Shown here: positions 46,516 to 63,537 of the stretch, piece after piece
Position numbering within the stretch: the first letter of the stretch is position 1
How the letters are laid out: each line of letters starts with the position of its first letter
Sequence record: PX418213.1
Direction: 5' to 3' (one strand)
Length of the DNA stretch: 64,000 bases
DNA from: a phage
Notes under the pieces: model-generated
What the model was told of the DNA's origin: nothing
Seen by the model: the letters and a program-made list of their open reading frames with translations, nothing else
Databases searched by the model: none
Made by a program: the position numbers and the translations under genes

Positions 46516-47007
46516 TTAGCCTCCAACACCTGGATTAACCGTTACTGTACATGCAGTAGAAGGTTTACTAACTTTCTTGCTATCTGTAACCGTTACTTTA
46601 TAGACTCCAGAATCATCAGTAGCTGCTGCAGGCTTAGTATAGGTAGCTCCTGAAGCCTCTGGAATAGGAGAACCATCTTTAGTCCATGCATAAGTATATG
46701 GACCAGTACCACCGGTTGCAGTAACAGAAAGTGTTAATGCTGCTCCCTCTTCAACTGACATGCTAGCAGTTAAATCTTTAGAAAGAGTTAATGGTGGGGC
46801 CGGTGGAGCAGAAGGAACTGCTTTACCATATGCCTCTACAAATTTCTTCCATACTTTGCGGTTAGTATGCGCAGATGAAAGTCCTAGTTCTCTACGCAGA
46901 AAAGCATAGCTAGGAACATATTTATGCGCAGCAACCGTAGCAAAGAAGATATGAGATTCTGGTAGTTTTTCACCAAAAATGGTCTTTAGACCACTATAAT
47001 CAATCAT
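46516..47007 (-). CDS. capsid decoration protein with C-terminal Ig-like domain
   Basis: 163 aa; C-terminal LTLSVTATGGTGPYTYAWTKDGSPIPEASGATYTK is Ig-like. Confidence 0.6.
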   Translation of the reverse strand: MIDYSGLKTIFGEKLPESHIFFATVAAHKYVPSYAFLRRELGLSSAHTNRKVWKKFVEAYGKAVPSAPPAPPLTLSKDLTASMSVEEGAALTLSVTATGGTGPYTYAWTKDGSPIPEASGATYTKPAAATDDSGVYKVTVTDSKKVSKPSTACTVTVNPGVGG

Positions 47008-48104
47008 TCTTTATCTCCCTCGGTGGAACCTTGAGGTCTACCACCTTCTTGACCGGATACGCCTGTTGCAGAACCAGCGACGTTAGCAGGAATACGAATC
47101 TTATTCATCTGCTCATCATCTAAAGGCTCAAGGTTCAGCTCTAAACGAGCTTCGTTACCAGTTATAATACCATTATTAACCAATGAGGTTAAATGTTTAG
47201 CCTCAGATTCTTTATCTGGTGTTAATGCAGCTACTTCCTTAGTATTAGGAGTAATCTTATAACCAAAAAAGAAAGTAAGAGAACTAGTCAGCTTGTTCAG
47301 CATAGGAATGATAGTCATGTAATAGAACAGTTCGATATTTGGTCGAATGTTCGCATTATTACCACCATCAAGTAGCACTTGCGGAACACCAAAGGCTAGA
47401 CAGATGGATTTATTAAATCCTTCAATGTCTTCCTTAAAGTCTATCAGGACAGAAGACTGACCCGTACTAGGATTATAATCGAGTTGTAATTCTTCTTGTT
47501 TACGCTCACGCAATTTCTTGTTCAGGATTTCATCCGTCTCAAGAATAAGACCAATCACGGTTCCGTTATCGAGGAATTTCTCTTTAAAGTTGAGCATCTT
47601 GGAACGCTTCTCAAGAGAATCAATAACAGTAGCAACACGAGATTGTCCAGAAATTTGAGAATTTGTGCCACACACGTAACTGTTATCCTTTATAAAGATA
47701 ATCTCATCTACGCGATAGTCTATCTGATTATTAAATATAAATTTTTTGATAAACTTATTGGCATCTGCCTCTACTTGCATTAGTGCAGCAGGGACATGGT
47801 AAAGTGCTGTGCCATCCCAATAGATGTATGCACAACCTTCAAAAAGTAGGTCAGTGACTACAAGTCTACGGAATGTGCTTATATCCATGAATGGATTAGG
47901 TCGTACATTTAAGAGAGTAGTATAAGAACACTCCGCCGCACTATCTATAACCATATTAGCAGTTCTATTGAGAATCTCAATTTTACTGTAGGCTTGTCCA
48001 GTGGTAAAAGGCTTACGGTTAGTGCGATGACTAACTGGTTCCATGTCTCTTATAATACGTTGACCCGGATTTAGCTTTTCAGTAATCCAGCTTTTAAAAC
48101 CCAT
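47004..48104 (-). CDS. portal protein
   Basis: Position upstream of the protease; ICLAFGVPQVLLDGG resembles the conserved portal core. Confidence 0.55.
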   Translation of the reverse strand: MGFKSWITEKLNPGQRIIRDMEPVSHRTNRKPFTTGQAYSKIEILNRTANMVIDSAAECSYTTLLNVRPNPFMDISTFRRLVVTDLLFEGCAYIYWDGTALYHVPAALMQVEADANKFIKKFIFNNQIDYRVDEIIFIKDNSYVCGTNSQISGQSRVATVIDSLEKRSKMLNFKEKFLDNGTVIGLILETDEILNKKLRERKQEELQLDYNPSTGQSSVLIDFKEDIEGFNKSICLAFGVPQVLLDGGNNANIRPNIELFYYMTIIPMLNKLTSSLTFFFGYKITPNTKEVAALTPDKESEAKHLTSLVNNGIITGNEARLELNLEPLDDEQMNKIRIPANVAGSATGVSGQEGGRPQGSTEGDKE

Positions 48105-48556
48105 TATAAGAACCTTGCGAATCCTGATTTTGTTTCAGTCTTGACTTGTGTCTTTTCTTGAGGATTCTGTAATTTGTCTTTCTGCTTTTGAACCCACACT
48201 TTTTGCTTATTAGCAGAAAATAAAGGAGGTTCTTTTGTATAAACCTTATGTAATAATTGGTGGTGATGCTGGCAGAGTGTTACTACTTCTTCAATTAGCT
48301 CTCGCTCATATTGCTTATAGAATGCTTCCCTATTAGATAGGGTAATCTCCTCATCAGTGAAATCTAATTGATTTTCTTTAGCGAATTTTTTAACTAATTG
48401 AGAAATAGTAAAATAATGATGTAACTCTAGGTCATCATTACTACCACAGATTGCACAGCAATCACCCCTCCTATACCTAGATTTAATGCCGTCACGCATA
48501 ATCGATATGGCGTCACGTTTGAATTTTACATTGGTGGCCATGTTCCTCCAATCCAA
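48104..48556 (-). CDS. HNH endonuclease
   Basis: CCAICGS...LELHH...LCQHHHQLLH zinc-binding HNH signature. Confidence 0.65.
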   Translation of the reverse strand: MDWRNMATNVKFKRDAISIMRDGIKSRYRRGDCCAICGSNDDLELHHYFTISQLVKKFAKENQLDFTDEEITLSNREAFYKQYERELIEEVVTLCQHHHQLLHKVYTKEPPLFSANKQKVWVQKQKDKLQNPQEKTQVKTETKSGFARFL

Positions 48557-49205
48557 AGTTACTTAGAAAGACTACTATATCCTCTGGAGCAACATTAAAA
48601 AATTCTGTGCTTCCTGTAAATTTTGAAAACCCACAGTTTTTATTATAGTACTCTCTATGGACTTCTTTTTCTAAATCTAGAGCAGTTTCTCTATCAGGTA
48701 GATGATATGTGGTAAACAAGTATAAATCTGAAAATCCAGACTCTCTTTTAACCTCGTTCAACCGCTTCTCGGGGTATAAACTTATACCTACTTTAGTACC
48801 CATAGAGGAGGACATGATATAGAGAAACCCGCCATTATCCCATTTAAGGGAGCAATAAGGACATCTTCTACCCTGCGTCAACCCATCTAAGGCAATATAG
48901 CATTCATGACCATTGTTACAGCGTAGATGCAGTTTTGTTTTTGCATTAGTATAGTTATTTAATAGTGTATACCCTATACTGGATACCCTATTATTAACTT
49001 CATCTAGCGATATATTATTAGGAGCGCAATGTGGGCAACTCCTTCCCATATGAAGTATAGAATGCGGCGTTGCTTCCCAAACGTGTGCTCTTTGGCACAT
49101 AAATAATGTTTTTGTACGTTGGTTTACATATTCACCGACAATTCGGATTCCACGATCAGCTAATCTAGTATTTATATCTTTTATTGTTAGCTTTTGTCGA
49201 CCCAT
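48513..49205 (-). CDS. GIY-YIG-like nuclease (possibly T5orf172 family) with duplicated N-terminal zinc-ribbon motifs
   Basis: Two repeats of the (I/Y)xLxxxYxNxxTKxxxxC...H...CPxC(A/S) pattern, then GFLYIMSS...KVGIS resembling GIY...YIG. Confidence 0.4.
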   Translation of the reverse strand: MGRQKLTIKDINTRLADRGIRIVGEYVNQRTKTLFMCQRAHVWEATPHSILHMGRSCPHCAPNNISLDEVNNRVSSIGYTLLNNYTNAKTKLHLRCNNGHECYIALDGLTQGRRCPYCSLKWDNGGFLYIMSSSMGTKVGISLYPEKRLNEVKRESGFSDLYLFTTYHLPDRETALDLEKEVHREYYNKNCGFSKFTGSTEFFNVAPEDIVVFLSNFGLEEHGHQCKIQT

Positions 49206-49376
49206 AGAATCTCCTACACCCCATGTAGAGCACTAATTTTTCTTGTTTACGTTCTATTATGGGAGAAGTTCTCCCGATCAATGAATATAGTATACATAAT
49301 CGTATCGAATTTGTAAAGGGGATTTTAAAATGCAGGAATGGGATACCAACTGAGTAGTATCCCATCCTATACTTAT

Positions 49377-50693
49377 TTATTTACCACGGGAAATAGAGTA
49401 AATTCCATAGCGCAGCGCATCACAAAGGTGAGAGTTAGCATCATGACGTGGTTTTTCACGTGATAATTTTTCCTCACCTTCTTGGAAATCCCACTTATAG
49501 TTCTGCAATGCATGGATTAATGAGGAACATGAAGCATCTACAATAATCTTACCCTGCTGGAATAGTGCTTGTAAACATGCTAGACCATCTAGGACAGATT
49601 TCTTAGCAGGAGCTGATGCAATTTCATGTTCATACGCTAAATCCTGACGGAACTGGGCAGCCGCGGAGTCAACGAAGATACGATCTACGTTATAACGATC
49701 TATACAGTGCTGAATATACGCAGCATGCTGAGCTGTGGTTTTCTCCGCCTGCTGATACTCTTCTAATACATAGTAAGTATCCGTATCGTAATGATATTTA
49801 ATAGTAAGAACTGCTGTAGGATCACGATAACCAACGTCAATACCGAGCAACGTTTCGAAGGCTTCATCATCTTTAAAGAAGTGACGCATACCTTTAAGGT
49901 CTTTAACATGATCGATAGCATTAAAGGTGTCAAAGATCTGACCTTCGAATACAGAGAAGTCAGCCTCGTATTCTTGGCGGAAGTAGTTTTTACTAACAGT
50001 ACGACGTGCTTCCTCAATGTCATTCAGGTCAGCACGTGGATTATCACGATATGTACCATGAATAGACACCCAGTTAGGCAACGTATCATCAAACCCATAG
50101 GCATAAAACTCTTTAAACCAGTTACCACCACGAGGAGTAGAGATAAACAGAGCCTTAGAATTAGGTTTATCTAGAGTAGGACGCAACTGAACCCTGAAGG
50201 CATCACCACCTACATCAGAAATTGCAGCCTCATCAAAGATGATAAAATCATATGAACGTCCAACTGCGGAGTCAGCCTGAGCCGCAGAAGCTAGTTTAAA
50301 TAAAGAACCATTAGCTAACTCAATCTCCTTATCTTTAGCGTTCTCACGTTCGGTTTGTAGGCCGTACTTTTTAATAAGACCACGAATCTGAGACCATCCG
50401 ATATTGGCCAGTGAGTAGTTAGGGGCAACTACTAGCACTTTCACATTAGGTTCAAGCAACTTTAGGAACCCAAGTGTATATGCGATGAAGGACTTGCCCA
50501 CACGGCGTGATACACACGCCGTTACAAAACGATGTCTAGGATCTTCTAGCGCATTGATAATTGCTATTTGAGGACCATTAGGTGTAATACCTTCTTGCGC
50601 CAATATTCCAGAAACAGGTAGACGAAAGAAACGTTTATCTATCCCGAAATCAATAACATCTACCGTATTAACGTAGGGTCTTGATACTTCCAT
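49377..50693 (-). CDS. terminase large subunit
   Basis: Walker A CVSRRVGKS, Walker B-like FIIFDEAA, C-terminal nuclease region; 438 aa. Confidence 0.8.
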   Translation of the reverse strand: MEVSRPYVNTVDVIDFGIDKRFFRLPVSGILAQEGITPNGPQIAIINALEDPRHRFVTACVSRRVGKSFIAYTLGFLKLLEPNVKVLVVAPNYSLANIGWSQIRGLIKKYGLQTERENAKDKEIELANGSLFKLASAAQADSAVGRSYDFIIFDEAAISDVGGDAFRVQLRPTLDKPNSKALFISTPRGGNWFKEFYAYGFDDTLPNWVSIHGTYRDNPRADLNDIEEARRTVSKNYFRQEYEADFSVFEGQIFDTFNAIDHVKDLKGMRHFFKDDEAFETLLGIDVGYRDPTAVLTIKYHYDTDTYYVLEEYQQAEKTTAQHAAYIQHCIDRYNVDRIFVDSAAAQFRQDLAYEHEIASAPAKKSVLDGLACLQALFQQGKIIVDASCSSLIHALQNYKWDFQEGEEKLSREKPRHDANSHLCDALRYGIYSISRGK

Positions 50694-51175
50694 TACTTCT
50701 TACCTCCAGTAGCTAGGGAAGTAATTAAGTCCATGTAGTTTTGATCCCCAGCTCCAGCAATAATATTATTCTGGATGTTGGTCTGGTTAGCTGGAGTACG
50801 GGCTGCTGCCTTCACTTTCTCCAACTCTACCATCATTTTCATCTCTTCCATCTTCATCTTGTGTGCCTTCCAGAGGATATCCATAATATCTTGGTCAGAA
50901 CCCATTCCAGTTTCTTCCAGTTCCTCCAGCTTACGTTTAATAACTTCATCTAGAACACCGAACAAACGATCTCTGTTACGGAAACCACTCTCCATAAAAA
51001 TATCGTTTAAGTAGTTCTTAACTTCACTACGATTCATAATATCTCGGAAAGCAATCTCGGACATTCCAAGACTACGTGCGGCAGAAGGCACATCGCTGCC
51101 ACACTGTAAATAAGCTTCAATCACATCCATCCCTTCAGGGGACATAAGATCTGGTACTAATACATCATTTGCCAT
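50693..51175 (-). CDS. putative terminase small subunit / DNA-binding protein
   Basis: Immediately upstream of the large subunit with overlapping stop/start; HTH-like [17 protein letters not shown]. Confidence 0.35.
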
Positions 51176-51185
51176 ATTTCCTCCT

Positions 51186-52973
51186 TTAGGTAAGGCGTTG
51201 AACTGTTACTCGTAATCTCGGTAAGAAAACTGCGGCGGATTCATTTGCATGTATAACTACACCTAACTCAGCTTTACCGTTACCCAAATTTTTAATAGTA
51301 TAAATAAATCCACTTCTAGTAAATGTTAAATCATCAGGTCGACTAGCCCACTGCTGTGTATAGCTATAAGAAGCTGTAGTATGGAAGGGCACCAAATGAT
51401 TAGGTGGTAAAGTTAATATTTGATGGAATACCCCGTCACCACCGGTATAACTTTGTTGTCTTCTACCTTGCACCTGCCACGCAGTACCACCGTATGTTCG
51501 TATAGGACCTCCTGCTGTATTAAGATTTCCGGCAACTACTTCAGTAGTTAGGATTACTGTAGAGTTTGCATTAGGTAATCCAAGACCCACTGTAGATAGA
51601 GCTACGTACTTATTCCCAGTACCTGGGTAAGAAGGATTTATGTCATCACCTATGTACGTACTAGCTACGTTATTTGGTAGTAATCGTAAAGGTACTGAAG
51701 AAGGCCCCCAAACAACTCCGTGCTCATTACCTATAGTATTATTATTGGAATTAACATACCATTGTTTACCAGCAGAGAATTTGTAAATACTTATCTGAGA
51801 CTTAGAACCACCATAATTTACAGGTGACCACAAAGAACCTTTGTTAGAGCCTACAATTTCACATCTTGCTGTAGTATCCCCAAAGACTCCGGTATAAGCA
51901 ACGTTATTACCAATGTACTCCATATCAGGTCTAGATGATAAGTTACCAAAAGCATTCTGATTAATGAATTTGTAACTAGTGTTTGGAAGACTAACACCTT
52001 TTATAGTAAAGTTAGAAGGACTTATACGAATGTCGGATCCAGTAAAAGGATTACTAGCAACGCTCATACTACCATTAGAGTATCTAAGATTCAGCACATA
52101 CCAAATAACCCTAGTCGGAGTAATATTATAGCTATCTTGAACATACTTCTTCTTTGCTGCCTGTGATGCTAAATTAGATGTCGAGCCTCTGCATACATAA
52201 ACCTTATTCGGATAGGTAGAAGAATTATATAGTACACTCACATTACTTGGCGTAGTGCCTTTTTTACCCGCGTATCCACGTATATTAGAGTTACAAACAT
52301 AAAACCAATTATGACCTCTTTTTCCCGCCCCTATAGGAGCTTGCCAATTAGGGTGCCAGAAGTCAACATTACCACTATTTATCGATACTTTAGATGCTCC
52401 AGCTGGAAATCCTGCTAAAGTCCATGCCCTACCTATAGCTTCACCGGCGTATGCCCCACCAGGTCTATATAAATTAAACCCAGAAGCCTGTGATATAGTA
52501 CCACCAGTACCTTGTCTAGCTATTGACTCTTCATGTCCCAGACTAGAGTTATAAGTATAAGTACCATGTGCTAAACTATTACCAGATGCAAAAGCTGACG
52601 TAAGACCTAATTCAGCACCAGCCCTGCCAATAGGGGGATCTTCAAAAAATGCAAGAAATTGTCCAACCTGGGATTGAGTACCATTAAGAAAAGCTCTATG
52701 TGTACCATTTATCTCAACAGCGGTTAGTATAACTCTACCAGGATCATTACTCTTTAGGTTAGCTATCACAGAAGGCATCTGGCATACGTAGAAACCATTC
52801 CCAGCGCTACTTAATGCACTTTCATAAGTACTCTCAACTAGAACAAATGGCATATCAGAGTGAAATATAGTATTGGCATTAGGAGTTTTGTGAGCATTAA
52901 TATCCCCACCATTCACTTTGTTTAGTGATAATACAGTTTTACCATCACTATATTTTCCAGCGAAAAAACCCAT
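51186..52973 (-). CDS. receptor-binding tail protein (pb5-like)
   Basis: 595 aa, Gly/Asn/Ser/Thr-rich; divergent from an adjacent lipoprotein gene, as in the T5 oad/llp arrangement. Confidence 0.5.
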
Positions 52974-52998
52974 ATAATCTCCTATTATAAAAATGTAT

Positions 52999-53027
52999 TT
53001 GCTTTCATCCCTCTATTTTGCTATAAT
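52999..53027 (+). promoter_or_regulatory. sigma70 promoter, N25 type, for the lipoprotein gene
   Basis: TTGCTT, 17 nt, TATAAT, then tagattcataaatt leader nearly identical to the 7359-7400 promoter. Confidence 0.6.
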
Positions 53028-53058
53028 AGATTCATAAATTAGAAATGGAGAGATAAAT

Positions 53059-53325
53059 ATGAAAAAGTTTGTGATTGCACTAGTTGCCGCAGTTATGTTA
53101 TCTGGTTGTGCACCTGCTCCCAAACCATTTTGTACGGGATTTGTAAAATCTTTTGGTGGTGCGGGAGAAGAACATTACGGTCTCAAGGTTCAAAAAGTTC
53201 GTATTAAGGGAGACCGCTTTCCAGTAGTACAGCTCCGTACTAAGTTTGGATGGTGGGATCTCAGTCAGTTTGACCTTAAATATGGTGATTGTAAATTTAA
53301 ACTAGAACAATCTAATTACTTGTAA
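53059..53325 (+). CDS. llp: lipoprotein, lytic-conversion (receptor-blocking) type
   Basis: Signal peptide with lipobox MLSGC; small size; divergent from the receptor-binding protein gene. Confidence 0.55.
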   Translation: MKKFVIALVAAVMLSGCAPAPKPFCTGFVKSFGGAGEEHYGLKVQKVRIKGDRFPVVQLRTKFGWWDLSQFDLKYGDCKFKLEQSNYL

Positions 53326-53501
53326 TTAGTATAAAACAAAAAGACATCCAAGTAAACTAAATTTTTTATTTCTTGGATGGTGTACTGGCAGAAAACACTA
53401 TGCAAGAAAAGTAGAAGTCCTTCTAGGAAGTCACAAGCATGGTTGGTTATGCACAAATTTTAAAATATTTCAAAATACCACATTTACGGGGCACGAAAGA
53501 T

Positions 53502-53630
53502 ATGTCAAACAAAAGAAAGAACAGACGCGGAGAAGTGTATGAAGCGTGGATTAATATTTACGGATTTGGTTTTGTATTATTCCTAATCTTCGTGGGTTTT
53601 TGGTTAGCAGCTATGGCGGGGTGGATTTAA
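53502..53630 (+). CDS. small single-pass membrane protein (array member 1)
   Basis: MSNKRKNRRGEVYEAWINIYGFGFVLFLIFVGFWLAAMAGWI; ORF track version starts at 53439. Confidence 0.35.
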   Translation: MSNKRKNRRGEVYEAWINIYGFGFVLFLIFVGFWLAAMAGWI

Positions 53631-53785
53631 TGGAATGGGTAACTATTGGCATATTCGTCTTATTGATACTTCTCTTCGTAGGCTTACGTGTAATAGATAC
53701 CTCTGTAACCCAAACAGAAATTAAATTAATGCAGTTGAGTAATAGATTATCTAGAATTGAAACTTTATTAGAGGAGCGTAAATAA
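53630..53785 (+). CDS. small single-pass membrane protein (array member 2)
   Basis: MEWVTIGIFVLLILLFVGL...RIETLLEERK; ATG overlaps the previous stop (TAATG); GGGTGGA upstream. Confidence 0.4.
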   Translation: MEWVTIGIFVLLILLFVGLRVIDTSVTQTEIKLMQLSNRLSRIETLLEERK

Positions 53786-53892
53786 TGGAATGGGTAATTA
53801 TTGCACTACTGGGGATTGTGATTATTGGGCAATGTATTTTAGATAATCACCTAGCTAGAATTGAAACCTTATTATTGGAGAAACGTAAATGA
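53785..53892 (+). CDS. small single-pass membrane protein (array member 3, 35 aa, absent from the ORF track)
   Basis: MEWVIIALLGIVIIGQCILDNHLARIETLLLEKRK, a clear paralog of member 2; TAATG overlap; GAGGAG upstream. Confidence 0.4.
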   Translation: MEWVIIALLGIVIIGQCILDNHLARIETLLLEKRK

Positions 53893-54083
53893 TGGAAGTG
53901 ACAGTTACACTAATAGTAATATTAGTCTGGGTAATCCTCATTGTCTCTCGTATCGTGTACCTCCGCCTAAAAACTCTAGAAGCTCAGGTGAAACAACAAC
54001 AAGTTATTCTAGAAAAGCTAGTACTACTGCAACGTTGTGATAGCACCCGTATTCTGCAAATTGAGAGGGAATTAGATGTTTAG
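53889..54083 (+). CDS. small single-pass membrane protein (array member 4)
   Basis: MMEVTVTLIVILVWVILIVSRIVYLRLKTLEAQ...; ATGA overlap with member 3. Confidence 0.4.
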   Translation: MMEVTVTLIVILVWVILIVSRIVYLRLKTLEAQVKQQQVILEKLVLLQRCDSTRILQIERELDV

Positions 54084-54321
54084 TATTATAATTGCTTTTA
54101 TTATCGGGATACTCGCGGGGGTTTTCGGAACGACTGCGGCAATCAACAAGCATCGTAAATATATTGCGGGAGTGACGCGGGAAATTGCGGAAAGGGAGCG
54201 GAAGTTTGACGAGAAACGTGCGGAGTTTGAGCGGGAGTGGTCGGATGGATCTCGGGCGTCGCGGAAGAGATTCCGTGAGTTCAGACCAGAACACAGGTTT
54301 GATGACCCTTCTATGCGCTAA
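54076..54321 (+). CDS. small membrane-anchored protein with charged C-terminal tail (array member 5)
   Basis: MFSIIIAFIIGILAGVFGTTAAI then Arg/Glu-rich tail; overlaps member 4. Confidence 0.4.
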   Translation: MFSIIIAFIIGILAGVFGTTAAINKHRKYIAGVTREIAERERKFDEKRAEFEREWSDGSRASRKRFREFRPEHRFDDPSMR

Positions 54322-54432
54322 TTTGACTTTTGCCAAATTTCATAAGATTACACATGGAGGTGTGTCCAGTGGGTTGGGAGAGAATACTTAGTCTGCTAAC
54401 CGCCACCCCCGTTACTATTACCATGCTAAATG

Positions 54433-54471
54433 TTTCACCCTGCAACCATTTTAATTGCAAGGTGAAACAAT
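54433..54471. other. hairpin between convergent genes
   Basis: 14-bp stem with one mismatch, gtttcaccctgcaa / ttgcaaggtgaaac. Confidence 0.3.
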
Positions 54472-54485
54472 TTCAACTTTAATTA

Positions 54486-55262
54486 TTACGCGACTTTTAG
54501 TTTCTCAATATATTGTTGCGGGCTGCAACTATATTCTGCGCGTTCTTCTTCTGTCATACTTTCCCAACATAGTTTTAAGCGATCGGCTAGGAACTGATAA
54601 TCATTATCATCCTCGAGCGATTCATCAATAAAGGTTCCGCCTATCAATGCCACGCCGATTGATAGAATATCATTAACGGCTTGCGCGTCCAACGTTTTAA
54701 ATCCGTATGATGCCGCCGCTGATAATACACCTTTATGATCATCAATCATTGTAAAATCAGCGTTCGGGTATAGCTGTTTAAATAATCCAAAGTAGTAACT
54801 TTTATATACTGCGTCCTTGCTGTGGTATATTTCGCTAACCTTATCAGCTTCAAAATATTTGTGCAGTGTATCGCGGGAAAATACACGGATATTACTATCC
54901 CCACGCCCGCGCAAGCCTTGCTTGCGTAGGAAGTAATAATCTGATTTGCTCATCAGGCGAGCGGTACAAATAAGGTTTAAGGTATTTGCGTCATTCATGC
55001 ATTGGCGCATATATTCAACTAATGGTAATAAGGTGTCTTGCATTATTAAATGATGCTTGCAAGCCTCGTTTTTGTATTTATTTAAATCTAAATTCCCGTC
55101 GCTATCAAAGCAAGGCGCTACGCGATGGAATGAGTTAACGATAGTGCCATCAAGATCCCAAATCATGACGCGGGAAACATGAGGAAAGCTACGGGTAATA
55201 TTCGTTTTAACTTGATTCATTTTGTTACGTTCTCCATTAAAGGGATGTAGTTTATCCAGCAT
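54486..55262 (-). CDS. dmp: HAD-family phosphatase, likely deoxynucleoside 5'-monophosphatase (dmp-like)
   Basis: HAD motif I VMIWDLDGTIV; sits in a pre-early-like block next to an A1-like gene. Confidence 0.5.
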   Translation of the reverse strand: MLDKLHPFNGERNKMNQVKTNITRSFPHVSRVMIWDLDGTIVNSFHRVAPCFDSDGNLDLNKYKNEACKHHLIMQDTLLPLVEYMRQCMNDANTLNLICTARLMSKSDYYFLRKQGLRGRGDSNIRVFSRDTLHKYFEADKVSEIYHSKDAVYKSYYFGLFKQLYPNADFTMIDDHKGVLSAAASYGFKTLDAQAVNDILSIGVALIGGTFIDESLEDDNDYQFLADRLKLCWESMTEEERAEYSCSPQQYIEKLKVA

Positions 55263-55300
55263 TGCCCGCTATCTATCAGCGGGCAATAATAAATCAACTA

Positions 55301-55693
55301 TTAAAGACCAAAGGCCAGCGCATCAGCGATAAAACTAATATCTTCTCCTGATACGTGGGAACGAATGCCCGCGCATGTAAATACCTTCGCGCTCATTAGT
55401 TGATCATCAAGACAAGCCGGACAAGGCGCGACAACTGCAAACGCTAGGCCGGATTTCACGGCGTCGATGATAATCGTTTCCTGCTTCACCGTATCAACAT
55501 AAACGCCTGCGGCCTTGATGTGACTACTTGCGCGGCCTTGCGTATAGGCGAAAGTCGTGATCTGCAGCGCCTCGTTAAACTCGAGTAAATCATCAACAAC
55601 GTGACCGGCCTCAACGTGATACCGCTCCCCATTAGAATAAACCAGAACGATTGAGGATTGAGCGCGATCGAATGGAATATTTTGCTTTTTCAT
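55301..55693 (-). CDS. hypothetical protein (130 aa)
   Basis: ORF track; contains HVE and PCPAC motifs but with spacing atypical for cytidine deaminases. Confidence 0.35.
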   Translation of the reverse strand: MKKQNIPFDRAQSSIVLVYSNGERYHVEAGHVVDDLLEFNEALQITTFAYTQGRASSHIKAAGVYVDTVKQETIIIDAVKSGLAFAVVAPCPACLDDQLMSAKVFTCAGIRSHVSGEDISFIADALAFGL

Positions 55694-55760
55694 AGTTATA
55701 AAACTCCAATTAATTTAATAAGGGAAATAAGCGAGGTATATACCCCGCTTATAAATTTAA

Positions 55761-57446
55761 TTATGCGAAAAACTTACCGTTTTTAAAGTCAATCAAAGTG
55801 CGCTGGCCGTTCGCATAGGTAATTAAATGCGTTTGCGTCCAGCTTGACGCGCCAACGTTATAGCCCATATCTAGGGAACCAGCAACGCCCGCCGTATATA
55901 CGCCGCCGTAAATGCTGGCGGTGTGAGTGTGCCCCGTGTTTAACTTGCCCAATTTCTTAAACTGCTTAGGATTGCCACGGCTGCCGTTTATGCCGTTGTG
56001 ACCGTGTACGCCGCATTCAATGCCTGCAATCTTGAAAGATTGATCAGTCGTTAGGAAAATCGCGTTAAACTCGCAACCTGCGACGGTACGCAGCGCATAA
56101 TCTAGCACGTTGAAAGTATCATCCTGCCTTGCAATAGCTGCATAGATAGCGGCATTCAGGCGGTGATATAATTCCGCGTTTGCTGGATCGTCTTTAATGT
56201 TAGCATTGCGATCATCAAGCCAACGGGATAGCGCCAGATCGTGGTTTGATTCCACAATGATTGTTTGACTAAAATCACGTTCCATTGATTCCAGCACGCG
56301 CCCGGTATCGATGAGATCATCCAGAACCTTATCACGTCCGGCTGCATACTGTTTCGCTAGAAATACACCAGAAGCGCGGTTATGGTGGTTGCGCGATGTA
56401 AAATCATGCACGTCATGCACAAATTGATATTTTGGCTTGAGAATATCCACTAGCCCATAAGTATCACCGTGCCCCCATGACGCTGCGGCGCACTCCTCAT
56501 CAAGTTTTTCGGCGTGTATGTCGCCATATTGCAAGCCTAAAACATGCCCCGACGTTTCAAAGCATCCGGTGGGAGTAGCGCAAACGTTCAGATCGTAAAA
56601 CATGCCGCTTTCGTCCATCGTTTCAAGCTGGCGCACAAAAAACTCACCGTCTTCGTCGAACTCAACAATCAGCGCACCGAAATTATGCAATGCTTCCGCT
56701 TTCTGTCCTGCTTTCTGCTGAATGTAGTTTTTAAGCGTTGCCGTTCCGGTGGAATACATGCGGCGCACTACTTCACCTTTGAGAGCTGGCACGCTTTCGG
56801 CGGTGATTTTAGCGTGACCAATTGCCAGACCTTCCAGATTAAGCGCGGTTGCAGTTTCTGCGAATCCAGACAGCGGATAGTCTGCGGTGGGCAAAACATT
56901 AATTTCAGCCATGAAAGCGAAACGGCGGTTATTTAAAAACACGTTTTTACTGCAAATATATTTATCAAACGCGGAATCATATTTGATTCCGTCTGCGCCT
57001 TCCCCATTCTGGAATCCGTTTTTATTATAAATATACTTGCTAACCAGCAAATCAGCGCCGATAAATTGGGCGTATTGCTCCAACGCGGCTAAAAAGTTTT
57101 TATGCGGGAAAGTATTATTTTGAATCGACGTTAGAATAAAGCGTTTACCTTGTTTTACTTCCCACTGTTCCACCGTGCTAGAAATAATTCCAGCCGCTTC
57201 GGGGCGCTCGTCGTTTTTAATGGCTTTTGCTACTTTCGCCGCTTTTGGTTTCGCTGGTTTATTTGCTTCCAGCCAATCACAAATCGCGGTGGAGTGTTTT
57301 GCAGTATCGTAAACCGCTTTCGAAATATCGTCACAAACTTCCAGCTTGGTGGCGCGCAGACGTTTACCATAGAAATTAAAGTCAGCGGCCAGCTTCAGGA
57401 TAACGGTTTGCTTTTCTGCGGAAATAATCATAGTAATAAGCTCCAT
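55761..57446 (-). CDS. A1: A1-like pre-early protein with metallophosphoesterase domain
   Basis: 561 aa; calcineurin-like motifs YGDIH, ESNHD, GHxH-like GHTH; adjacent to an A2-like gene. Confidence 0.55.
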   Translation of the reverse strand: MELITMIISAEKQTVILKLAADFNFYGKRLRATKLEVCDDISKAVYDTAKHSTAICDWLEANKPAKPKAAKVAKAIKNDERPEAAGIISSTVEQWEVKQGKRFILTSIQNNTFPHKNFLAALEQYAQFIGADLLVSKYIYNKNGFQNGEGADGIKYDSAFDKYICSKNVFLNNRRFAFMAEINVLPTADYPLSGFAETATALNLEGLAIGHAKITAESVPALKGEVVRRMYSTGTATLKNYIQQKAGQKAEALHNFGALIVEFDEDGEFFVRQLETMDESGMFYDLNVCATPTGCFETSGHVLGLQYGDIHAEKLDEECAAASWGHGDTYGLVDILKPKYQFVHDVHDFTSRNHHNRASGVFLAKQYAAGRDKVLDDLIDTGRVLESMERDFSQTIIVESNHDLALSRWLDDRNANIKDDPANAELYHRLNAAIYAAIARQDDTFNVLDYALRTVAGCEFNAIFLTTDQSFKIAGIECGVHGHNGINGSRGNPKQFKKLGKLNTGHTHTASIYGGVYTAGVAGSLDMGYNVGASSWTQTHLITYANGQRTLIDFKNGKFFA

Positions 57447-57527
57447 TAAAGGGATAAAAAACGTTTGTTATTGGCAAATGTTGCCAAATATAACGCCTCC
57501 AATAATAGGCGTTATAATTTGCAATAT

Positions 57528-57725
57528 TTAACTAATAGGCATCAGGCTAGAACTAACACCGCAAACAACGGCGGCAATAAAACAAATCAGGCCCAAACGC
57601 TTCGCTAACTTAGATTTGCGTTTAAAATAATACGAATCTAAATCATTTTGAAAATATGCGAACAATAACGAGGCCGCCACAATAAATAGGCCTAAAATTA
57701 AGGATTCAGTAGGAAAGAAAATCAT
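57528..57725 (-). CDS. small membrane protein (two predicted TM segments)
   Basis: MIFFPTESLILGLFIVAASLLFAYF...LICFIAAVVCGV; ORF track version 57528..57773. Confidence 0.3.
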   Translation of the reverse strand: MIFFPTESLILGLFIVAASLLFAYFQNDLDSYYFKRKSKLAKRLGLICFIAAVVCGVSSSLMPIS

Positions 57726-57782
57726 TTTAATAACTCCAATTAAAGGGAAATTATAGTGGGGAATAATCCCCACTAATTAAAT

Positions 57783-58190
57783 TTATTCACCTGCGGCTTG
57801 TTTTACCTCATCGGCAACGCCTAACAACTGCGCCACGGCGTCCAGCGTTTCCAGCTTCGCGCTTTCAAGGCTTGCCAGATCATCGGCGTCCTTGATAATG
57901 CCGGAATCGATAGCGTGTTTTGCAATTACTCGCACATAGTGAGCTTTACGGATTGAGCTGCCGCCGCCAACCTTGCGCGGCTTGTCGCTTTTTTGGTAGG
58001 CTTTCGCGCTGGTCAATTTCGAACGAACTGACACGGGAGAAGCCGCACCAACTGCTTTCGCGATCTCTTTCAAGCCGTCGCTATTTGCGAATTCTAGCCC
58101 GTTTTCATTGATTAACTGCTGATACATGGAAACAGCCTGCTGGGTGTTTTCTTCGTTCCAGGAAAATTTTGCGGCTTTAACGTTAGTCAT
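57783..58190 (-). CDS. A2: A2-like pre-early DNA-binding protein (135 aa)
   Basis: Size and position immediately upstream of the A1-like gene; basic C-terminal half. Confidence 0.45.
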   Translation of the reverse strand: MTNVKAAKFSWNEENTQQAVSMYQQLINENGLEFANSDGLKEIAKAVGAASPVSVRSKLTSAKAYQKSDKPRKVGGGSSIRKAHYVRVIAKHAIDSGIIKDADDLASLESAKLETLDAVAQLLGVADEVKQAAGE

Positions 58191-58290
58191 GGTAAAAACT
58201 CCAATTAATTTAATTTAAGGGATTAAATGATTAACTAATGTTAATCGTTATATGCCCCGAACTACTGGGGCATATAAAGTTAACACTAAT

Positions 58291-58542
58291 TTATAAAACG
58301 GCTTCCCATTTTTCGTTGCGTTGAACAACCTTTACAACGTCGCCGGATTTAACGCGAACGTTATAAATCGGCTTGCCGTTGTTACTGCGCTCATTTTCAG
58401 CGTATACCGCGTCGATTGTATCGAACGGCATGAGCGCCGCGCCTTTAATACGTTCGGCTTTTCCGGTCAATTCATCCGTTTTAGTAACGAAAGGAATAAA
58501 AACGGATTGACCAACTTTCGGCGCATTAATAACGTTTTTCAT
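58291..58542 (-). CDS. hypothetical small protein (83 aa)
   Basis: ORF track; first gene of the minus-strand pre-early-like unit. Confidence 0.4.
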   Translation of the reverse strand: MKNVINAPKVGQSVFIPFVTKTDELTGKAERIKGAALMPFDTIDAVYAENERSNNGKPIYNVRVKSGDVVKVVQRNEKWEAVL

Positions 58543-58774
58543 GGTATAAACTCCAAGTTATTTGTGGATTGTTCCGCATTATCTGCTACTTTCTAGCAGA
58601 CAATAAGAAAAAATCCGCTAGCCATTATAAAATCAATTTAAGGAACTCCACGCGGGCCGCTATATCCCAGTTAGGGGGCGGGATGCATTATGGTAAGCAC
58701 CGACCGTCAGATTTTATCAAGTTATCGCTCTTATCGAACTGGGTACATCTTAAAGCCTATCGGCTAGGGTGTCA

Positions 58775-58948
58775 AATAGTTTTTTCGTTTTCTTTTAAGT
58801 TAGGATCTTCCCAACTGAATAGCATTTCGCAAAATATTTTCCCATCTTTATGATGGTAAGCTATTTCACTTCCGTGGTTAGCACAAAAATTAATCACCGC
58901 TTCAGCTTGTTCTACCGTGATATTGTTAGCCGTTTCTTTGATTTTCAT
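58775..58948 (-). CDS. hypothetical small protein (57 aa, absent from the ORF track)
   Basis: ATG at 58948 preceded by AAGGAA at 8-nt spacing; translation MKIKETANNITVEQAEAVINFCANHGSEIAYHHKDGKIFCEMLFSWEDPNLKENEKTI. Confidence 0.3.
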
Positions 58949-59373
58949 ATCGTCGATTCCTTATAATGTAATAAGTTTACCGCCGATAGGCTTTAAGATA
59001 TACCCAATTTTTAAAGAGCGCGGCGGTAAACTTCCCGCCGTGTAGTTCGTCATTGCCGCCCTACGAGATAAATAATAACAAACAACGAAAAAGGCGCAAC
59101 CTTATATTTGTAAAGAAATGTAAAGACAAACGCCACCGGACACCGTGCGGCGACCTGGGCGCAGCGCATTAAAATTAAAAGAAACGGGCGCGCGAATAAC
59201 ACAAAACATAGCAGATAGGCAAGTAATTTTTTCACTTATATTTGCTTTGGGGGTATTGACAAAATCTAAAAAGCTCGTGGCAGCGATAAACGACGTGGCC
59301 CCTTATGATTGGATGGCCAAAAACTTTATTGCGTTCTGGGGCGTTTTAGGCGCATTCTAGCCTTGTTGATAAC

Positions 59374-59834
59374 TTATCCACAGAAGCAAAAATGAAATTT
59401 TCCTAGTTATCCACTTGACTTTTATTTTCCAGTGGATAACTACTTATTTTATGAAATAAATTAATTGACTTTTATTTGCTAGTATGCATCGGAAAGATAG
59501 CAGACTAATAATTGCTAGGATGATGATCATGCTGGTGGATTGTAACGGCCTGAATTATTAGCAGACTGTTAATCAGGGAAAATCTCATTAGCCAACTAAC
59601 TATTTCATGATATATAATATACTTATAAATTAATGAGAAATAATAACTATAAGAAATCATCATCATTATAATAATAACTATAAGAAATCATCATCATTAT
59701 AATAATAACTATAAGAAACTATCGGCATAAGTGAGAACCACTATCATTTAAGTTATCCACAACGTTATCCACAGCACAAAATAATTTGACACGATAGGCG
59801 GCGATATGAGGGCTTTTACACAGACTTATCCACA
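59374..59834. promoter_or_regulatory. cluster of DnaA-box-like 9-mers in an AT-rich intergenic region
   Basis: TTATCCACA at 59374, 59744, 59755, 59826; TTATCCACT / AGTGGATAA inverted pair at 59407 and 59431. Confidence 0.55.
59640..59727. repeat. tandem direct repeat, 31-bp unit, about 2.6 copies
   Basis: ataataactataagaaatcatcatcattata repeated with period 31. Confidence 0.7.
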
Positions 59835-59860
59835 GGTTATCCTACTGTATAAATATACAG
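59821..59860. repeat. left arm of a 40-bp inverted repeat containing a DnaA box
   Basis: cagacttatccacaggttatcctactgtataaatatacag; reverse complement of 63118-63157 with one mismatch. Confidence 0.7.
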
Positions 59861-59956
59861 GGTAAAAAGGCAGTGTTAACGACTGCAATCAATTTTAGGC
59901 GGCCTAAAACGCTTTCTAACGAGCTAAACGCTGCGGGGTAATATTAAAGTAAAGAC

Positions 59957-60003
59957 CCAACACGTCGCCCTGATGGCTTCAGTGCGTCGCCCTGGTGGCT
60001 TCG
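59957..60003. repeat. tandem direct repeat, about 22-bp unit, two copies
   Basis: cgtcgccctgatggcttc / cgtcgccctggtggcttc. Confidence 0.5.
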
Positions 60004-60149
60004 CCGTGTTTTGCTCGTTACTACACCGCTGCGCGGTTAGCATAAAATTAGGCGTTAGGCAAGAAAAATAAAAAAGTAAAATAATCTTTGCCTATGCTAG
60101 AAAATTACCTTTATCATTCACTCACCGATTAACGAGAGGGGCCGAACAA

Positions 60150-61136
60150 ATGAGGCTATATAAACCAGATAACGCAACCGTCTTAAAAGGTGCGCTGCGT
60201 AACCTGCTGGACGGTAGCAGAACAACCAGCATTAAGCATTTTGTTTTCAATATTGAAACTATTCATCAAAACTTTTTTGATGATTATGATGCTTATAATA
60301 TGAATAGTTTTCTACCGTTATATAAGCAAGGGGCAACGCTTGTTTTATATAATCAGGATTATCAATTACTTACTAGTCGGGGGCCGGATACTGATTTCAT
60401 AATAGTAAAAGGCAACACAGTAAAAGCCTATGATACTGGGGCGGGCCTAGAAGTTTTTTCAATAGAAAACTATGAGGCCAATGATAATGATCTTTATGAC
60501 GTAGAAAATTTTCTCGATTCATTTTGGCGTTATTTATCAGTTGGCTGGAATCGGTCGGATTCTGATGGGTATCGTTTTGCGGCTATAATGGCCTTTGATG
60601 ATAACGGTAATTTTTTGCTACCGTCGGAGTTATATAATCGGGTATATGAAGGCGATATTGTTGACGCCGGATTTTCTTTCGAAAGGGAAGAAAGTATTGG
60701 CAATATAGAAAAACATGTTGTAAATTCTAACACTAAAAACGTTCACACTCAAACTACTGAAAACAAAGGAAAAAATACCATGACCAAGATTGCTAACATC
60801 GTTGCCGCTAATAAATCCGCCGTTGTAAACGCTGCAAAACTGGAAGCGGGTAAAATTGCACTAACTCAAATCACGAAAGTAGCGGCTAAAAAAGCACCGT
60901 TCATGATCAGAGGCTATATTGATACGCCGATTGGTCGCGTAGTGATCGCTAACCTGCTGAGTGTAGCGGTTGACCAGTACGCCCCGAGTAACCAGAAAGC
61001 GAAAGCGGTAGCAAGCGCGGCAATGGAAGCGGCTATGTTAGAAATGGTGCAATCTTTTAACATCGCTGAGATGATCGATGAAATGGTAAAAGGTATCGAT
61101 ATTTCTACTTTTACCAATAACACCGAAAACGAGTAA
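60150..61136 (+). CDS. hypothetical protein (328 aa; possibly two fused domains or genes)
   Basis: ORF track; internal ATG at about 60780 preceded by AAGGAAAA starts an Ala/Val-rich C-terminal part. Confidence 0.4.
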   Translation: MRLYKPDNATVLKGALRNLLDGSRTTSIKHFVFNIETIHQNFFDDYDAYNMNSFLPLYKQGATLVLYNQDYQLLTSRGPDTDFIIVKGNTVKAYDTGAGLEVFSIENYEANDNDLYDVENFLDSFWRYLSVGWNRSDSDGYRFAAIMAFDDNGNFLLPSELYNRVYEGDIVDAGFSFEREESIGNIEKHVVNSNTKNVHTQTTENKGKNTMTKIANIVAANKSAVVNAAKLEAGKIALTQITKVAAKKAPFMIRGYIDTPIGRVVIANLLSVAVDQYAPSNQKAKAVASAAMEAAMLEMVQSFNIAEMIDEMVKGIDISTFTNNTENE

Positions 61137-61253
61137 TAAATAATCTAATGTAAAGTTTTGTAAAGGTCGCCTTTTATGGTGGCCTTTTTTGTTATAATGC
61201 CTTTACACCGTTCGAGGACGGTTGAAATTTTCCCAAAATTTTGGAGGCTTAAA

Positions 61254-61484
61254 ATGGTTGCTTTTTCTTCTGCTAGTCATCTTTTCACTGGAAAAGGCTG
61301 GGTATCAAATCGCTGGATCATTCAAGAAATGGTGCAAGAGTACGGCATCGCTAAAACTTATACTACCATACAGGCGCTTTATGATAATGATCAGATTGAT
61401 CAGCAAACGGCGGGCTTTTTACTGGATACCCTGAAGGCGGAGCACTGTACCAAAAAACAAGCGGCCAAAATTATTTTAATGTAA
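61254..61484 (+). CDS. hypothetical small protein (76 aa)
   Basis: ATG 61254 preceded by GGAGG; ORF track start 61176 overlaps the upstream intergenic region. Confidence 0.35.
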   Translation: MVAFSSASHLFTGKGWVSNRWIIQEMVQEYGIAKTYTTIQALYDNDQIDQQTAGFLLDTLKAEHCTKKQAAKIILM

Positions 61485-61492
61485 TCAATAAC

Positions 61493-61511
61493 GGGGGATA
61501 TAATATCCCCC
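61493..61511. other. perfect palindromic hairpin
   Basis: gggggatataatatccccc. Confidence 0.4.
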
Positions 61512-61533
61512 ACTAACTAGGGGAGTATTACAA

Positions 61534-61713
61534 ATGGTTATTTTTCGAGCTTTTTTAGCGGGTATCTTGGGCGCTATTCTTACTCTTTTTGCTACCGCTT
61601 ACGGTATCCAAGATTATTGCGGCTTAGTAGTCACAAAACCTATGGTTACTATTGGCGCGGGTATCGCTGTATTTTCTTATCTGCTGGGCTGCATGACTAG
61701 TAAAGGAGAATAA
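61534..61713 (+). CDS. small membrane protein (59 aa, absent from the ORF track)
   Basis: ATG preceded by GGGGAG; two hydrophobic segments (FLAGILGAILTLFATAY and VTIGAGIAVFSYLLG). Confidence 0.3.
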   Translation: MVIFRAFLAGILGAILTLFATAYGIQDYCGLVVTKPMVTIGAGIAVFSYLLGCMTSKGE

Positions 61714-61715
61714 AA

Positions 61716-61928
61716 ATGATCCGCAACGTTTCTCTTGCACGTTCGAAAGGCTTTGCGCTGGTGGATGCTAACACGTTCGAGCGTCCTGATTGTAAAATTG
61801 AATATGTAGCACGTAATAAAAATGCCTTTCGTGTTACTGAAAAGAAATTCGACAAGCGCGGCAACGTGATCCTTGAAACGGTCAGGCACTTTGCCACCTT
61901 TTACGCTGCGTTTCGTGGGGTACTATGA
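61716..61928 (+). CDS. hypothetical small protein (70 aa)
   Basis: ATG preceded by AAAGGAG. Confidence 0.45.
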   Translation: MIRNVSLARSKGFALVDANTFERPDCKIEYVARNKNAFRVTEKKFDKRGNVILETVRHFATFYAAFRGVL

Positions 61929-62056
61929 AAAGCGTTATTGTTGTTCTCCTTGCAATGGCTGGCGGTTTTATCGCCACCTTATTTAGGAATGACCCCGTTT
62001 CGCTGGGGATCTTTATGCTTTTATCTGGATACCTGATCGGGAGGTTATGCAAATGA
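61925..62056 (+). CDS. small membrane protein (43 aa, absent from the ORF track)
   Basis: ATGA overlap with the previous stop; hydrophobic MKSVIVVLLAMAGGFIATLF. Confidence 0.3.
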   Translation: MKSVIVVLLAMAGGFIATLFRNDPVSLGIFMLLSGYLIGRLCK

Positions 62057-62397
62057 TCATTTACGAGGGCAATCGTTTTGTTGCTAACTGCCGCCCGGCA
62101 TTGTTAGCAAACTATTTAAACCAGCTTTCGCCAGCTTATAAGGGCGTTATTAATATTTATGAGGGCAAGGCGCATTATAAAATCAATGCGGTCGTTGCCC
62201 GTGAACTAGCGTTTCAATTTTTAACCTTCGCATCTTGCGACGTTCAGGTAATGGGTGAGGCATTAATCGCAGAAAATGAGGATGATTTTATTAATATTTT
62301 TCGCAAGATATGCACCGAGCGCCTGATAATGAAAGGCGCGTATATTCAATCCACGGCTGATAGTATTGAAACAGCGTTTCGAAAGGTGGCGCAATGA
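62047..62397 (+). CDS. hypothetical protein (116 aa)
   Basis: ORF track; overlapping start and stop with neighbours. Confidence 0.4.
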   Translation: MQMIIYEGNRFVANCRPALLANYLNQLSPAYKGVINIYEGKAHYKINAVVARELAFQFLTFASCDVQVMGEALIAENEDDFINIFRKICTERLIMKGAYIQSTADSIETAFRKVAQ

Positions 62398-62609
62398 GTG
62401 AAATTACTTGGAATATGTTGCTGAAGGTTAAACGGGTAAAATTAACGCAGGATTTATGGGGAGTAGGTAAAACTGGGGATGTATTCACTGTGTTTAAAGA
62501 CGCCCATCATAGGTTTATAAGAAGGAATAACAATACCGGTACAGCGTTTTATTTAATTGATTTAATCAAATTACATGGTGAGGATATTTTCAAACTAGAA
62601 TATGAGTAA
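62394..62609 (+). CDS. hypothetical protein (71 aa)
   Basis: ORF track; ATGA overlap with the previous gene. Confidence 0.4.
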   Translation: MSEITWNMLLKVKRVKLTQDLWGVGKTGDVFTVFKDAHHRFIRRNNNTGTAFYLIDLIKLHGEDIFKLEYE

Positions 62610-62664
62610 CTATATAATTTTGGCGTATTGCAATGAGATAGCCAACTAATAACGGAGCGTTATT

Positions 62665-62859
62665 ATGAGCAATAAAATTGTTGTAACCAAAACTACTACG
62701 ATGGTAGACGTTTTTTACGTGCCCAATACGCCGGAGAATCGACAAGCGGTTGAGCGTGGGGAATATGATAAAGTGATCTATGATCACGATGGTTATTATC
62801 AGTATTTGGTGGATTCATACGGGGAGGAGGAAAAGATCACGCATCAACTACCTGACTAA
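62665..62859 (+). CDS. hypothetical protein (64 aa)
   Basis: ORF track; last gene of the plus-strand cassette. Confidence 0.4.
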   Translation: MSNKIVVTKTTTMVDVFYVPNTPENRQAVERGEYDKVIYDHDGYYQYLVDSYGEEEKITHQLPD

Positions 62860-63117
62860 TAATCACGGGGCGCAACTATCCGGGAGTGCCCCCAATTTTC
62901 AAACGATAATCATTCTCATTTGACCGCGCTCGCGATGGTTAGCCTGCTAATGGTTCGGGTGTTACGTGTCGCCTTGTGTGATCGTTAGCGTGCTAACTAA
63001 TTTTCAAGCCTCCTCCAATTTTGCCCTTGTTTTAGTATCTCCACCAAAATAAAACGCGTTAGAATGCGTTTGAGAGCGTTTTAGCGGTATATTAGAATTA
63101 TTCACTACATAGGAATA

Positions 63118-63157
63118 CTGTATATTTATACAGTAGGATAAGCTGTGGATAAGTCTG
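63118..63157. repeat. right arm of the 40-bp inverted repeat, with DnaA-box-like sites
   Basis: ctgtatatttatacagtaggataagctgtggataagtctg; further TGTGGATAA at 63207-63215. Confidence 0.7.
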
Positions 63158-63250
63158 TTAATAACGCCTCAAAATGGCTAGGATTCTGTCAAGTCAAATC
63201 GTGCTGTTAATAAGTCTGTGGATAACTTAAATAACAGTGTTTCTCACTTC

Positions 63251-63500
63251 CGTTCTTAAATGAGAATCATTATCATTTGCATTTCACTATCTAACTAATA
63301 ATCATTCCACTTTTTAAATGAGAATCGTTCCACTTCCTGAATAATTTTCGTTCCACTTTCTAAATGATAATCGTTATCATTTGCATTCCTCTTTCTAAAT
63401 GCGAATCATTCCACTTCTTAAATGAGAATCGTTTCACTTTTTAAATGAGAATTATTATCATTCTCATTCCGCTTTTTAAATGAGAATGATTCTTATTATC
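63251..63500. repeat. array of about seven direct repeats with a Fur-box-like palindromic core
   Basis: TTAAATGAGAATC(A/G)TT(A/C/T) units, for example 63256-63274 and 63360-63378; each matches the Fur consensus GATAATGATAATCATTATC at about 15 of 19 positions; an isolated copy at 62905-62920. Confidence 0.6.
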
Positions 63501-63510
63501 ATTCGTATTT

Positions 63511-63534: not shown

Positions 63535-63537
63535 TTT

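Follow-up and report, generated by a model that had tools for sequence, protein, structure and literature searches.

The window is the whole stretch of DNA analyzed here, 64,000 nucleotides of a phage (record PX418213.1). It is Tequintavirus throughout and is approximately 95-96% identical to the Salmonella phages vB_Sen_I1, SE8, and SE11, compared with approximately 90% for BF23. Two divergent genes lie at 51186-53325, one encoding a 595-aa receptor-binding protein (RBP), the other a small lipoprotein (Llp), and both open reading frames were confirmed at the positions where the initial annotation had placed them as a pair. The elements of the locus, with the adjacent terminase genes, are as follows.

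49377..50693, minus strand: terL, located after terS on the same strand as the RBP gene
50693..51175, minus strand: terS, matching PHROG 3802 (E 6.5e-91), with 100% amino-acid identity to T5 terS
51186..52973, minus strand: RBP gene hrs/oad (pb5 family, BF23 subtype), an ATG open reading frame of 595 aa; predicted receptor BtuB
52974..53058, no strand assigned: divergent intergenic control region between the RBP gene and llp, 85 bp
52979..52983, minus strand: Shine-Dalgarno sequence of the RBP gene, AGGAG (reverse complement of ctcct), 5 nt before the ATG
52999..53027, plus strand: predicted llp promoter, with a −35 element TTGCTT at 52999-53004, a 17-nt spacer, and an extended −10 element TGcTATAAT at 53019-53027
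53047..53052, plus strand: Shine-Dalgarno sequence of llp, GGAGAG, 6 nt before the ATG
53059..53325, plus strand: llp lipoprotein gene, an ATG open reading frame for an 88-aa precursor identical to BF23 Llp at 88 of 88 residues; predicted role in superinfection exclusion

The terS gene lies directly downstream of the RBP gene on the same strand, separated from it by a 10-nt gap. A position upstream of terS and terL and divergent from a small lipoprotein gene is the one expected of this RBP family. Two reports (PMC8594841; 10.64898/2026.04.02.716166) put the canonical locus of the RBP in T5-like phages 'upstream of the terminase genes', and the same arrangement of RBP, llp, and terminase genes is found in the T5, BF23, DT57C, SPC35, K16, and ESCO30 records. 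A tblastn search of 50,697 phage records found 541 with an RBP homologue and 441 with a homologue of the lipoprotein, almost all of them T5-like phages of Salmonella, Escherichia, and Klebsiella; with homologues in such numbers, both open reading frames are genes rather than chance occurrences.

The RBP matches PHROG 4815, 'receptor binding tail protein', over its entire length (E 1.3e-266, residues 1-595 on profile positions 1-650), and phmmer finds a distant match to the solved structure of T5 pb5 (8b14_B, E 2.5e-49). It is identical to BF23 Hrs/Oad, a protein of the same length that aligns to it without gaps, at 574 of 595 residues (96.5%). Identity reaches 99.0-99.5% with the RBPs of SP1a, Kenya-K16, SE11, ESCO30, and phiP4, which show just 3-6 amino-acid differences from the window; with Llp 98.9-100% and module DNA 96.3-97.2% identical, these phages carry effectively the same allele. 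The 50,697 phage records include none that is identical, either to the RBP/Llp module or to the window as a whole.

The receptor was typed by comparing the window RBP, through global alignment and tblastn, with those of phages for which experiments have established the terminal receptor. The identities to the window are listed below.

BF23, receptor BtuB: RBP 96.5%, 595 aa; Llp 100%
HildyBeyeler (Bas33): RBP 86.9%, 595 aa; Llp 98.9%
SPC35, receptor BtuB: RBP 83.7%, 595 aa; Llp 98.9%
TrudiGerster (Bas27): RBP 73.9%, 590 aa; Llp 68.2%
DT57C, receptor BtuB: RBP 71.8%, 586 aa; Llp 98.9%
T5, receptor FhuA: RBP 35.0% by global alignment and 30.7% by tblastn, 640 aa; Llp 26-30%
H8, receptor FepA: RBP 34.2% by global alignment and 28.5% by tblastn, 637 aa

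In this comparison the window RBP groups with the experimentally BtuB-dependent RBPs and apart from the FhuA and FepA classes. The RBP phylogeny of the Markadamsvirinae contains BtuB, FepA, and FhuA clusters (BASEL report, PMC8594841), and cluster membership is reported to predict the receptor (PMC8594841, 10.64898/2026.04.02.716166). A 2026 genome-wide screen found that 23 of 23 BtuB-binding Demerecviridae have an RBP approximately 30% identical to pb5 (10.64898/2026.04.02.716166). The BtuB dependence of BF23 and the blocking of the receptor by BF23 Llp have been established experimentally (PMC4728585, PMC10644984), and BtuB was shown genetically to be the receptor of SPC35 and DT57C (PMC4728585). 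Because the identity table matches both the BASEL clusters and the 2026 screen, the gene pair is very probably a BF23-type, BtuB-specific host-recognition cassette of Tequintavirus. The isolation hosts of phages with RBPs at least 99% identical to that of the window include both Salmonella (SP1a, SE11, and Kenya-K16) and E. coli DH5a (ESCO30). BF23 uses BtuB in both E. coli and Salmonella (PMC10644984), and the occurrence of near-identical RBPs in phages from both host genera fits this dual use.

The initial annotation had given T5 pb5 as roughly 640 aa and had taken the shorter RBP of the window as a sign of a specificity other than FhuA. T5 pb5 is indeed 640 aa, and a specificity other than FhuA is supported by the 96.5% identity to the BtuB-binder BF23 Hrs/Oad. 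The alignment to T5 pb5 that had been proposed as a check was run and gave a full-length identity of just 30.7% (tblastn) or 35% (global), far from high identity. The reasoning from length was weaker: protein length is a poor discriminator of receptors because the RBP of H8, which binds FepA, measures 637 aa and is thus close to the 640 aa of T5, with the BtuB-binders at 586-595 aa.

Other assignments of the module were tried and set aside. A T5-type (FhuA) module was ruled out by the approximately 31-35% identity to pb5, the 26-30% identity between the lipoproteins, and the break in T5 DNA homology across 51200-53500. An H8-type (FepA) module was ruled out by the 28.5% identity of the 637-aa H8 RBP, which was located beside terS in the unannotated H8 genome. 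A link to FepA through 'S124', given as 'probably FepA' in the BASEL report, was dropped as two different phages go by that name. One, vB_SenS_S124 (OK108607.1, China), is an SPC35-like phage with an RBP 83.7% identical to that of the window and a BF23-type Llp; the FepA-type S124 is NC_048013 and groups with H8.

The DNA of the cassette records both strong constraint and a mosaic history. Relative to BF23, the RBP gene carries 176 nt differences (9.8%), mostly synonymous, which produce only 21 amino-acid changes; counted by codon, 147 differences are synonymous only and 21 are nonsynonymous, giving a dN of 0.019, a dS of 0.49, and a dN/dS of 0.038. A ratio of approximately 0.04 at a dS of 0.49 reflects strong purifying selection and therefore a conserved function. 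The llp gene differs from its BF23 counterpart at 7 positions, all 7 synonymous and none nonsynonymous, with a dS of 0.13. In a sliding identity profile, homology to T5 DNA ends at approximately 51200 and resumes at approximately 53500, and the span without T5 homology is exactly the RBP-llp cassette that differs between T5 and BF23. The same profile shows identity to BF23 rising from approximately 90% to approximately 98% at approximately 52900: it is 97.5-98% over llp, the intergenic region, and the first 70 or so nt of the RBP gene, and approximately 90% over the remainder of that gene. This jump indicates that llp, the intergenic region, and the RBP gene's 5' end share a history that is distinct from, and more recent than, that of the main part of the RBP gene, and the discontinuity in divergence therefore places a recombination breakpoint in the RBP gene, shortly within its 5' end.

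The distribution of alleles points the same way. The BF23-type Llp allele (at least 95% identity) occurs in 181 records and the BF23-type RBP (at least 95%) in only 24, so one Llp allele has been combined with several RBP subtypes. Golomidova et al. described the same mixing of Llp alleles and RBP subtypes for DT57C (PMC4728585). The module is already known in each of these respects: earlier publications describe the cassette, its exchange with respect to T5, and the point of recombination close to the hrs-llp junction. The initial annotation proposed that the pair is a host-range determinant worth typing; the typing gives the known BF23 type, and the pair is not novel.

The positions at which the RBPs diverge can be compared with the receptor contacts of pb5. 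T5 pb5 pushes three loops, L1 (tip Gln115), L2 (tip Phe170), and L4 (570-590), into the FhuA lumen (PMC9586334). In an alignment of eight RBPs (six BtuB-cluster sequences, T5, and H8) divided into 25-residue bins, the bins aligned with T5 L1, L2, and L4, which hold window residues 101-125, 151-200, and 526-550, are the least conserved. Indels relative to T5 and H8 are frequent in them, and within the six BtuB-cluster RBPs they contain 5-9 invariant positions out of 25, compared with 15-22 out of 25 elsewhere. The divergence of the DT57C (72%, 586 aa) and SPC35 (84%) RBPs from the window is likewise concentrated in loop regions, and the HMMER alignment of the window RBP to T5 stops at residue 534, just before L4. 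This pattern fits a receptor specificity that would reside in the loop bins.

Approximately 7 of the 21 differences between BF23 and the window fall in or near the bins aligned with the pb5 contact loops, and the loop-region substitutions relative to BF23 include G170R, A177G, M180I, R541Q, and R552T. With about seven substitutions in or near contact-loop regions, a shift in fine specificity, such as a preference among BtuB alleles, becomes possible. These substitutions could tune recognition to the BtuB variants of Salmonella or other enterobacteria or, at the extreme, to another TonB-dependent transporter, with Llp still blocking BtuB. The chance of such tuning is slim; if it were real, the series of RBP alleles would be a natural map of specificity-determining residues in a BtuB-binding RBP.

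A more radical reading is that substitutions have retargeted an RBP of the BF23 lineage to a different outer-membrane protein, whether FepA, FhuA, or another TonB-dependent transporter, leaving Llp behind as a mismatched remnant. Some of the 21 substitutions do lie in the hypervariable bins 101-125, 151-200, and 526-550 (pb5 L1, L2, and L4), and the different histories of the RBP gene and llp (dS 0.49 versus 0.13) mean that recombination can uncouple them. Yet the window matches the consensus of the BtuB group at most loop-region sites and BF23 is the outlier, as seen at positions 142, 170, 177, 180, and 222. The RBP dN/dS of 0.04 also speaks against a change of target, as does the identity of just 30% or so between the window RBP and the FepA and FhuA classes, and a mismatched Llp would be selected against, yet Llp is 100% conserved. 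What makes retargeting highly improbable is that the RBPs of SPC35 and DT57C, at 84% and 72% identity more divergent from the window than BF23, still use BtuB (PMC4728585). A BtuB-specific cassette remains the preferred reading.

The lipoprotein has the features of an exported, lipid-anchored protein. Its N-terminus, MKKFVIALVAAVMLSGC, contains the lipobox L-S-G-C ending in Cys17. The predicted signal peptide comprises aa 1-16 (MKKFVIALVAAVMLSG) and is followed directly by the predicted lipidation residue Cys17 (codon 53107-53109), so that the mature protein is predicted to be 72 aa long. In E. coli, the residue that follows the lipidated cysteine directs lipoprotein sorting (the +2 rule), and outer-membrane sorting of Llp is expected because residue +2 is Ala. 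Pfam detects the lipid-attachment motif LPAM_1 (23.9 bits, cutoff 20) and no Llp domain besides it. A PDB sequence search with Llp gave no meaningful match, and the searches with the RBP and Llp showed that neither protein has a solved structure of the BF23 type. Cys25 and Cys78 (mature positions +9 and +62) are a candidate disulphide pair, analogous in position to that of T5 Llp, in which an intramolecular Cys11-Cys58 disulphide ties the termini together (PMC9586334).

These few hallmarks could also describe a generic phage lipoprotein (a spanin component for lysis, for example, or a membrane moron) whose gene is no more than a neighbour of the RBP gene, and the lack of a Pfam domain past the lipid-attachment site and of a solved homologue would suit such a protein. 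That reading is extremely unlikely in light of what the protein resembles and where its gene lies. Llp matches PHROG 1119, the 'Cor superinfection exclusion protein' profile (E 1.8e-26, residues 1-82), as T5 Llp does (E 1.1e-19), and its gene is divergent from the RBP gene in all relatives compared. Its identity to BF23 Llp is 100%, and the Llp of DT57C, just 1 aa different from that of BF23, lowered plating more than 100-fold for both BF23 and DT57C when cloned and left T5 unaffected (PMC4728585). Blocking of the receptor by BF23 Llp itself has also been shown (Mondigler 2006). A lipoprotein that masks the same receptor as the RBP, as had been expected at the outset, is thus supported by identity to a demonstrated blocker, and Llp is best regarded as the predicted superinfection-exclusion partner of the RBP.

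The literature describes BF23-type Llp and T5 Llp as non-homologous. Direct BLASTP of the window Llp against T5 Llp gives a weak match (30% over 67 aa, E 1e-4), both proteins match the same Cor profile from end to end, and both combine a lipid-bearing cysteine with two further cysteines at similar positions. These shared features suggest that the two are probably distant homologues.

The 85-bp intergenic region is identical to that of SPC35 and differs from that of BF23 at 3 positions. In the BF23 records, divergent promoters are marked between the two genes, and the −35 and −10 elements of llp were carried over by collinear offset from the annotation of record DQ097178.1, from which promoter function is inferred. 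The −10 hexamer TATAAT occupies 53022-53027, and the TG at 53019-53020 makes it an extended −10 element. A generic promoter and terminator scan gave no signal beyond what shuffled sequence would yield and did not pick up the llp promoter, because its −35 element is weak, with 3/6 matches. The same scan found no terminators between the RBP gene and terS/terL, which is consistent with a possible late unit in which the RBP gene and the packaging genes would be transcribed together. By analogy with T5 and BF23, llp would be expressed early and the RBP late.

These elements suggest how the cassette would work. RBPs of the pb5 type, monomeric proteins carried on the tip of the straight fibre, bind a TonB-dependent transporter irreversibly and thereby trigger ejection (PMC9586334). 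The 595-aa Hrs/Oad RBP would accordingly be placed as a monomer on the central straight tail fibre, at its tip, where it would bind irreversibly to BtuB, the TonB-dependent transporter for vitamin B12 in E. coli and Salmonella, and commit the virion to DNA ejection. In the infected cell, llp would be transcribed from its own sigma-70-type promoter and its product exported, lipidated at Cys17, and, with Ala at +2, delivered to the outer membrane. Llp would then bind BtuB and render it unusable by the RBP, which would exclude superinfecting BtuB-dependent phages and spare progeny from adsorbing to debris. T5 Llp acts from the periplasm by binding a non-native plug conformation of FhuA, which makes loops EL7 and EL8 turn inward and cover the site of pb5 (PMC9586334). 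By analogy, Llp may block BtuB in the same manner, through periplasmic plug binding and allosteric closure of extracellular loops; such plug jamming is a reasonable proposal for BtuB because the Llps of the window and T5 both match the Cor profile and share the cysteine pattern.

A comparison of the cassette with known systems places it closest to BF23 hrs (oad)/llp (Mondigler et al. 2006; DQ097178.1, OR083247.1), with which it shares gene order, orientation, protein lengths of 595 and 88 aa, the 85-bp spacer, the llp promoter elements, and the receptor class, BtuB. In OR083247.1, oad (1788 nt) and llp (267 nt) have the lengths and arrangement found in the window. The differences lie in the 21 RBP substitutions and in the flanking genome, which is nearer to vB_Sen_I1, SE8, and SE11 than to BF23. 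DT57C and SPC35 share the Llp allele (98.9%), the locus architecture, and the BtuB receptor. T5 pb5 and Llp (PDB 8b14, 8a8c; van den Berg 2022) belong to the same families, PHROG 4815 and 1119, and occupy the same locus upstream of terS in the same divergent arrangement; the N-terminus of the RBP is conserved, T5 Llp is likewise of the Cor family with a lipid-bearing and two further cysteines, and the mode of action is presumed to be the same. In contrast, the 640-aa pb5 is only approximately 31-35% identical to the window RBP, with many indels and an L4 region that HMMER cannot align, T5 Llp has 77 aa and is 26-30% identical, and the receptor is FhuA, not BtuB. The H8 RBP is also a member of the pb5 family (PHROG 4815, E 1.6e-186) located upstream of terS, but it is 28.5-34% identical, 637 aa long, and specific for FepA.

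From the sequence of the cassette, the window phage should require BtuB rather than FhuA or FepA. Such a requirement leads to an expectation of cross-resistance with BF23, SPC35, DT57C, and E-colicins, and the phage should exclude other BtuB-dependent phages by means of Llp. The typing adds no new biology; it is useful for phage cocktail design and for genome annotation.

Several observations concern the flanks of the cassette. The portal gene (47004..48104, minus strand) encodes 366 aa instead of 403-405 aa. Relative to T5 and to its eight best-matching records, it has two gaps that are clean and in frame, one of 57 nt and one of 60 nt, with junctions after 47442 and 47918, which correspond to T5 portal residues 242-260 and 63-82, respectively. 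Those eight records (98.7-99.0% identical) all have the full-length gene, and the DNA around the gaps is approximately 99% identical to SE11, IME178, and fp01. The gaps may represent genuine variation, an artefact of assembly, or editing of the sequence. Between sciA and terL lies a T5.154-like endonuclease gene (48513..49365, minus strand) with a T5orf172 domain and zinc ribbons, split over two frames relative to T5 (aa 1-58 and aa 49-277). It is present in T5 and ESCO30 and absent from BF23, Kenya-K16, and SP1a, and is probably a decaying or mobile homing-endonuclease insertion.

On the other side of the cassette, four small open reading frames (63, 61, 64, and 81 aa) occupy 53439-54321 on the plus strand, between llp and the putative terminal repeat. 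Several have a hydrophobic segment, and they are the counterparts of BF23 Orf1-4 and T5.159-162, small membrane proteins; the last, of 81 aa, gives a sub-threshold match to LapA_dom (22.2 bits, cutoff 28). When the right terminal repeat of the BF23 and T5 annotations is mapped onto the window, its start falls at approximately 54363 (Kenya-K16: 54380; DT57C: 54486). The last 9.6 kb or so of the window (approximately 54363-64000) is probably the terminal repeat with the pre-early genes, which would mean that the window ends near the right end of the genome. Within this putative repeat, dmp (54486..55262) is followed by an A1-like gene and others.

Public records name this RBP inconsistently. The SE11 (MK972715) and ESCO30 records misname it 'receptor-blocking protein', and that of SLAM_phiST45 calls it 'terminase small subunit'. 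T5-like RBPs also appear in records named as Campylobacter, Listeria, or Corynebacterium phages, which likely reflect mislabelled hosts or contaminants. For phage Cit2, FhuA was inferred as the receptor from 96.9% identity to a 'T5' RBP, with 67-73% identity to BtuB-binders and a BF23-type Llp reported as well (PMC12980165); these figures are mutually inconsistent, given the approximately 30% identity between T5 pb5 and the BtuB-binders.
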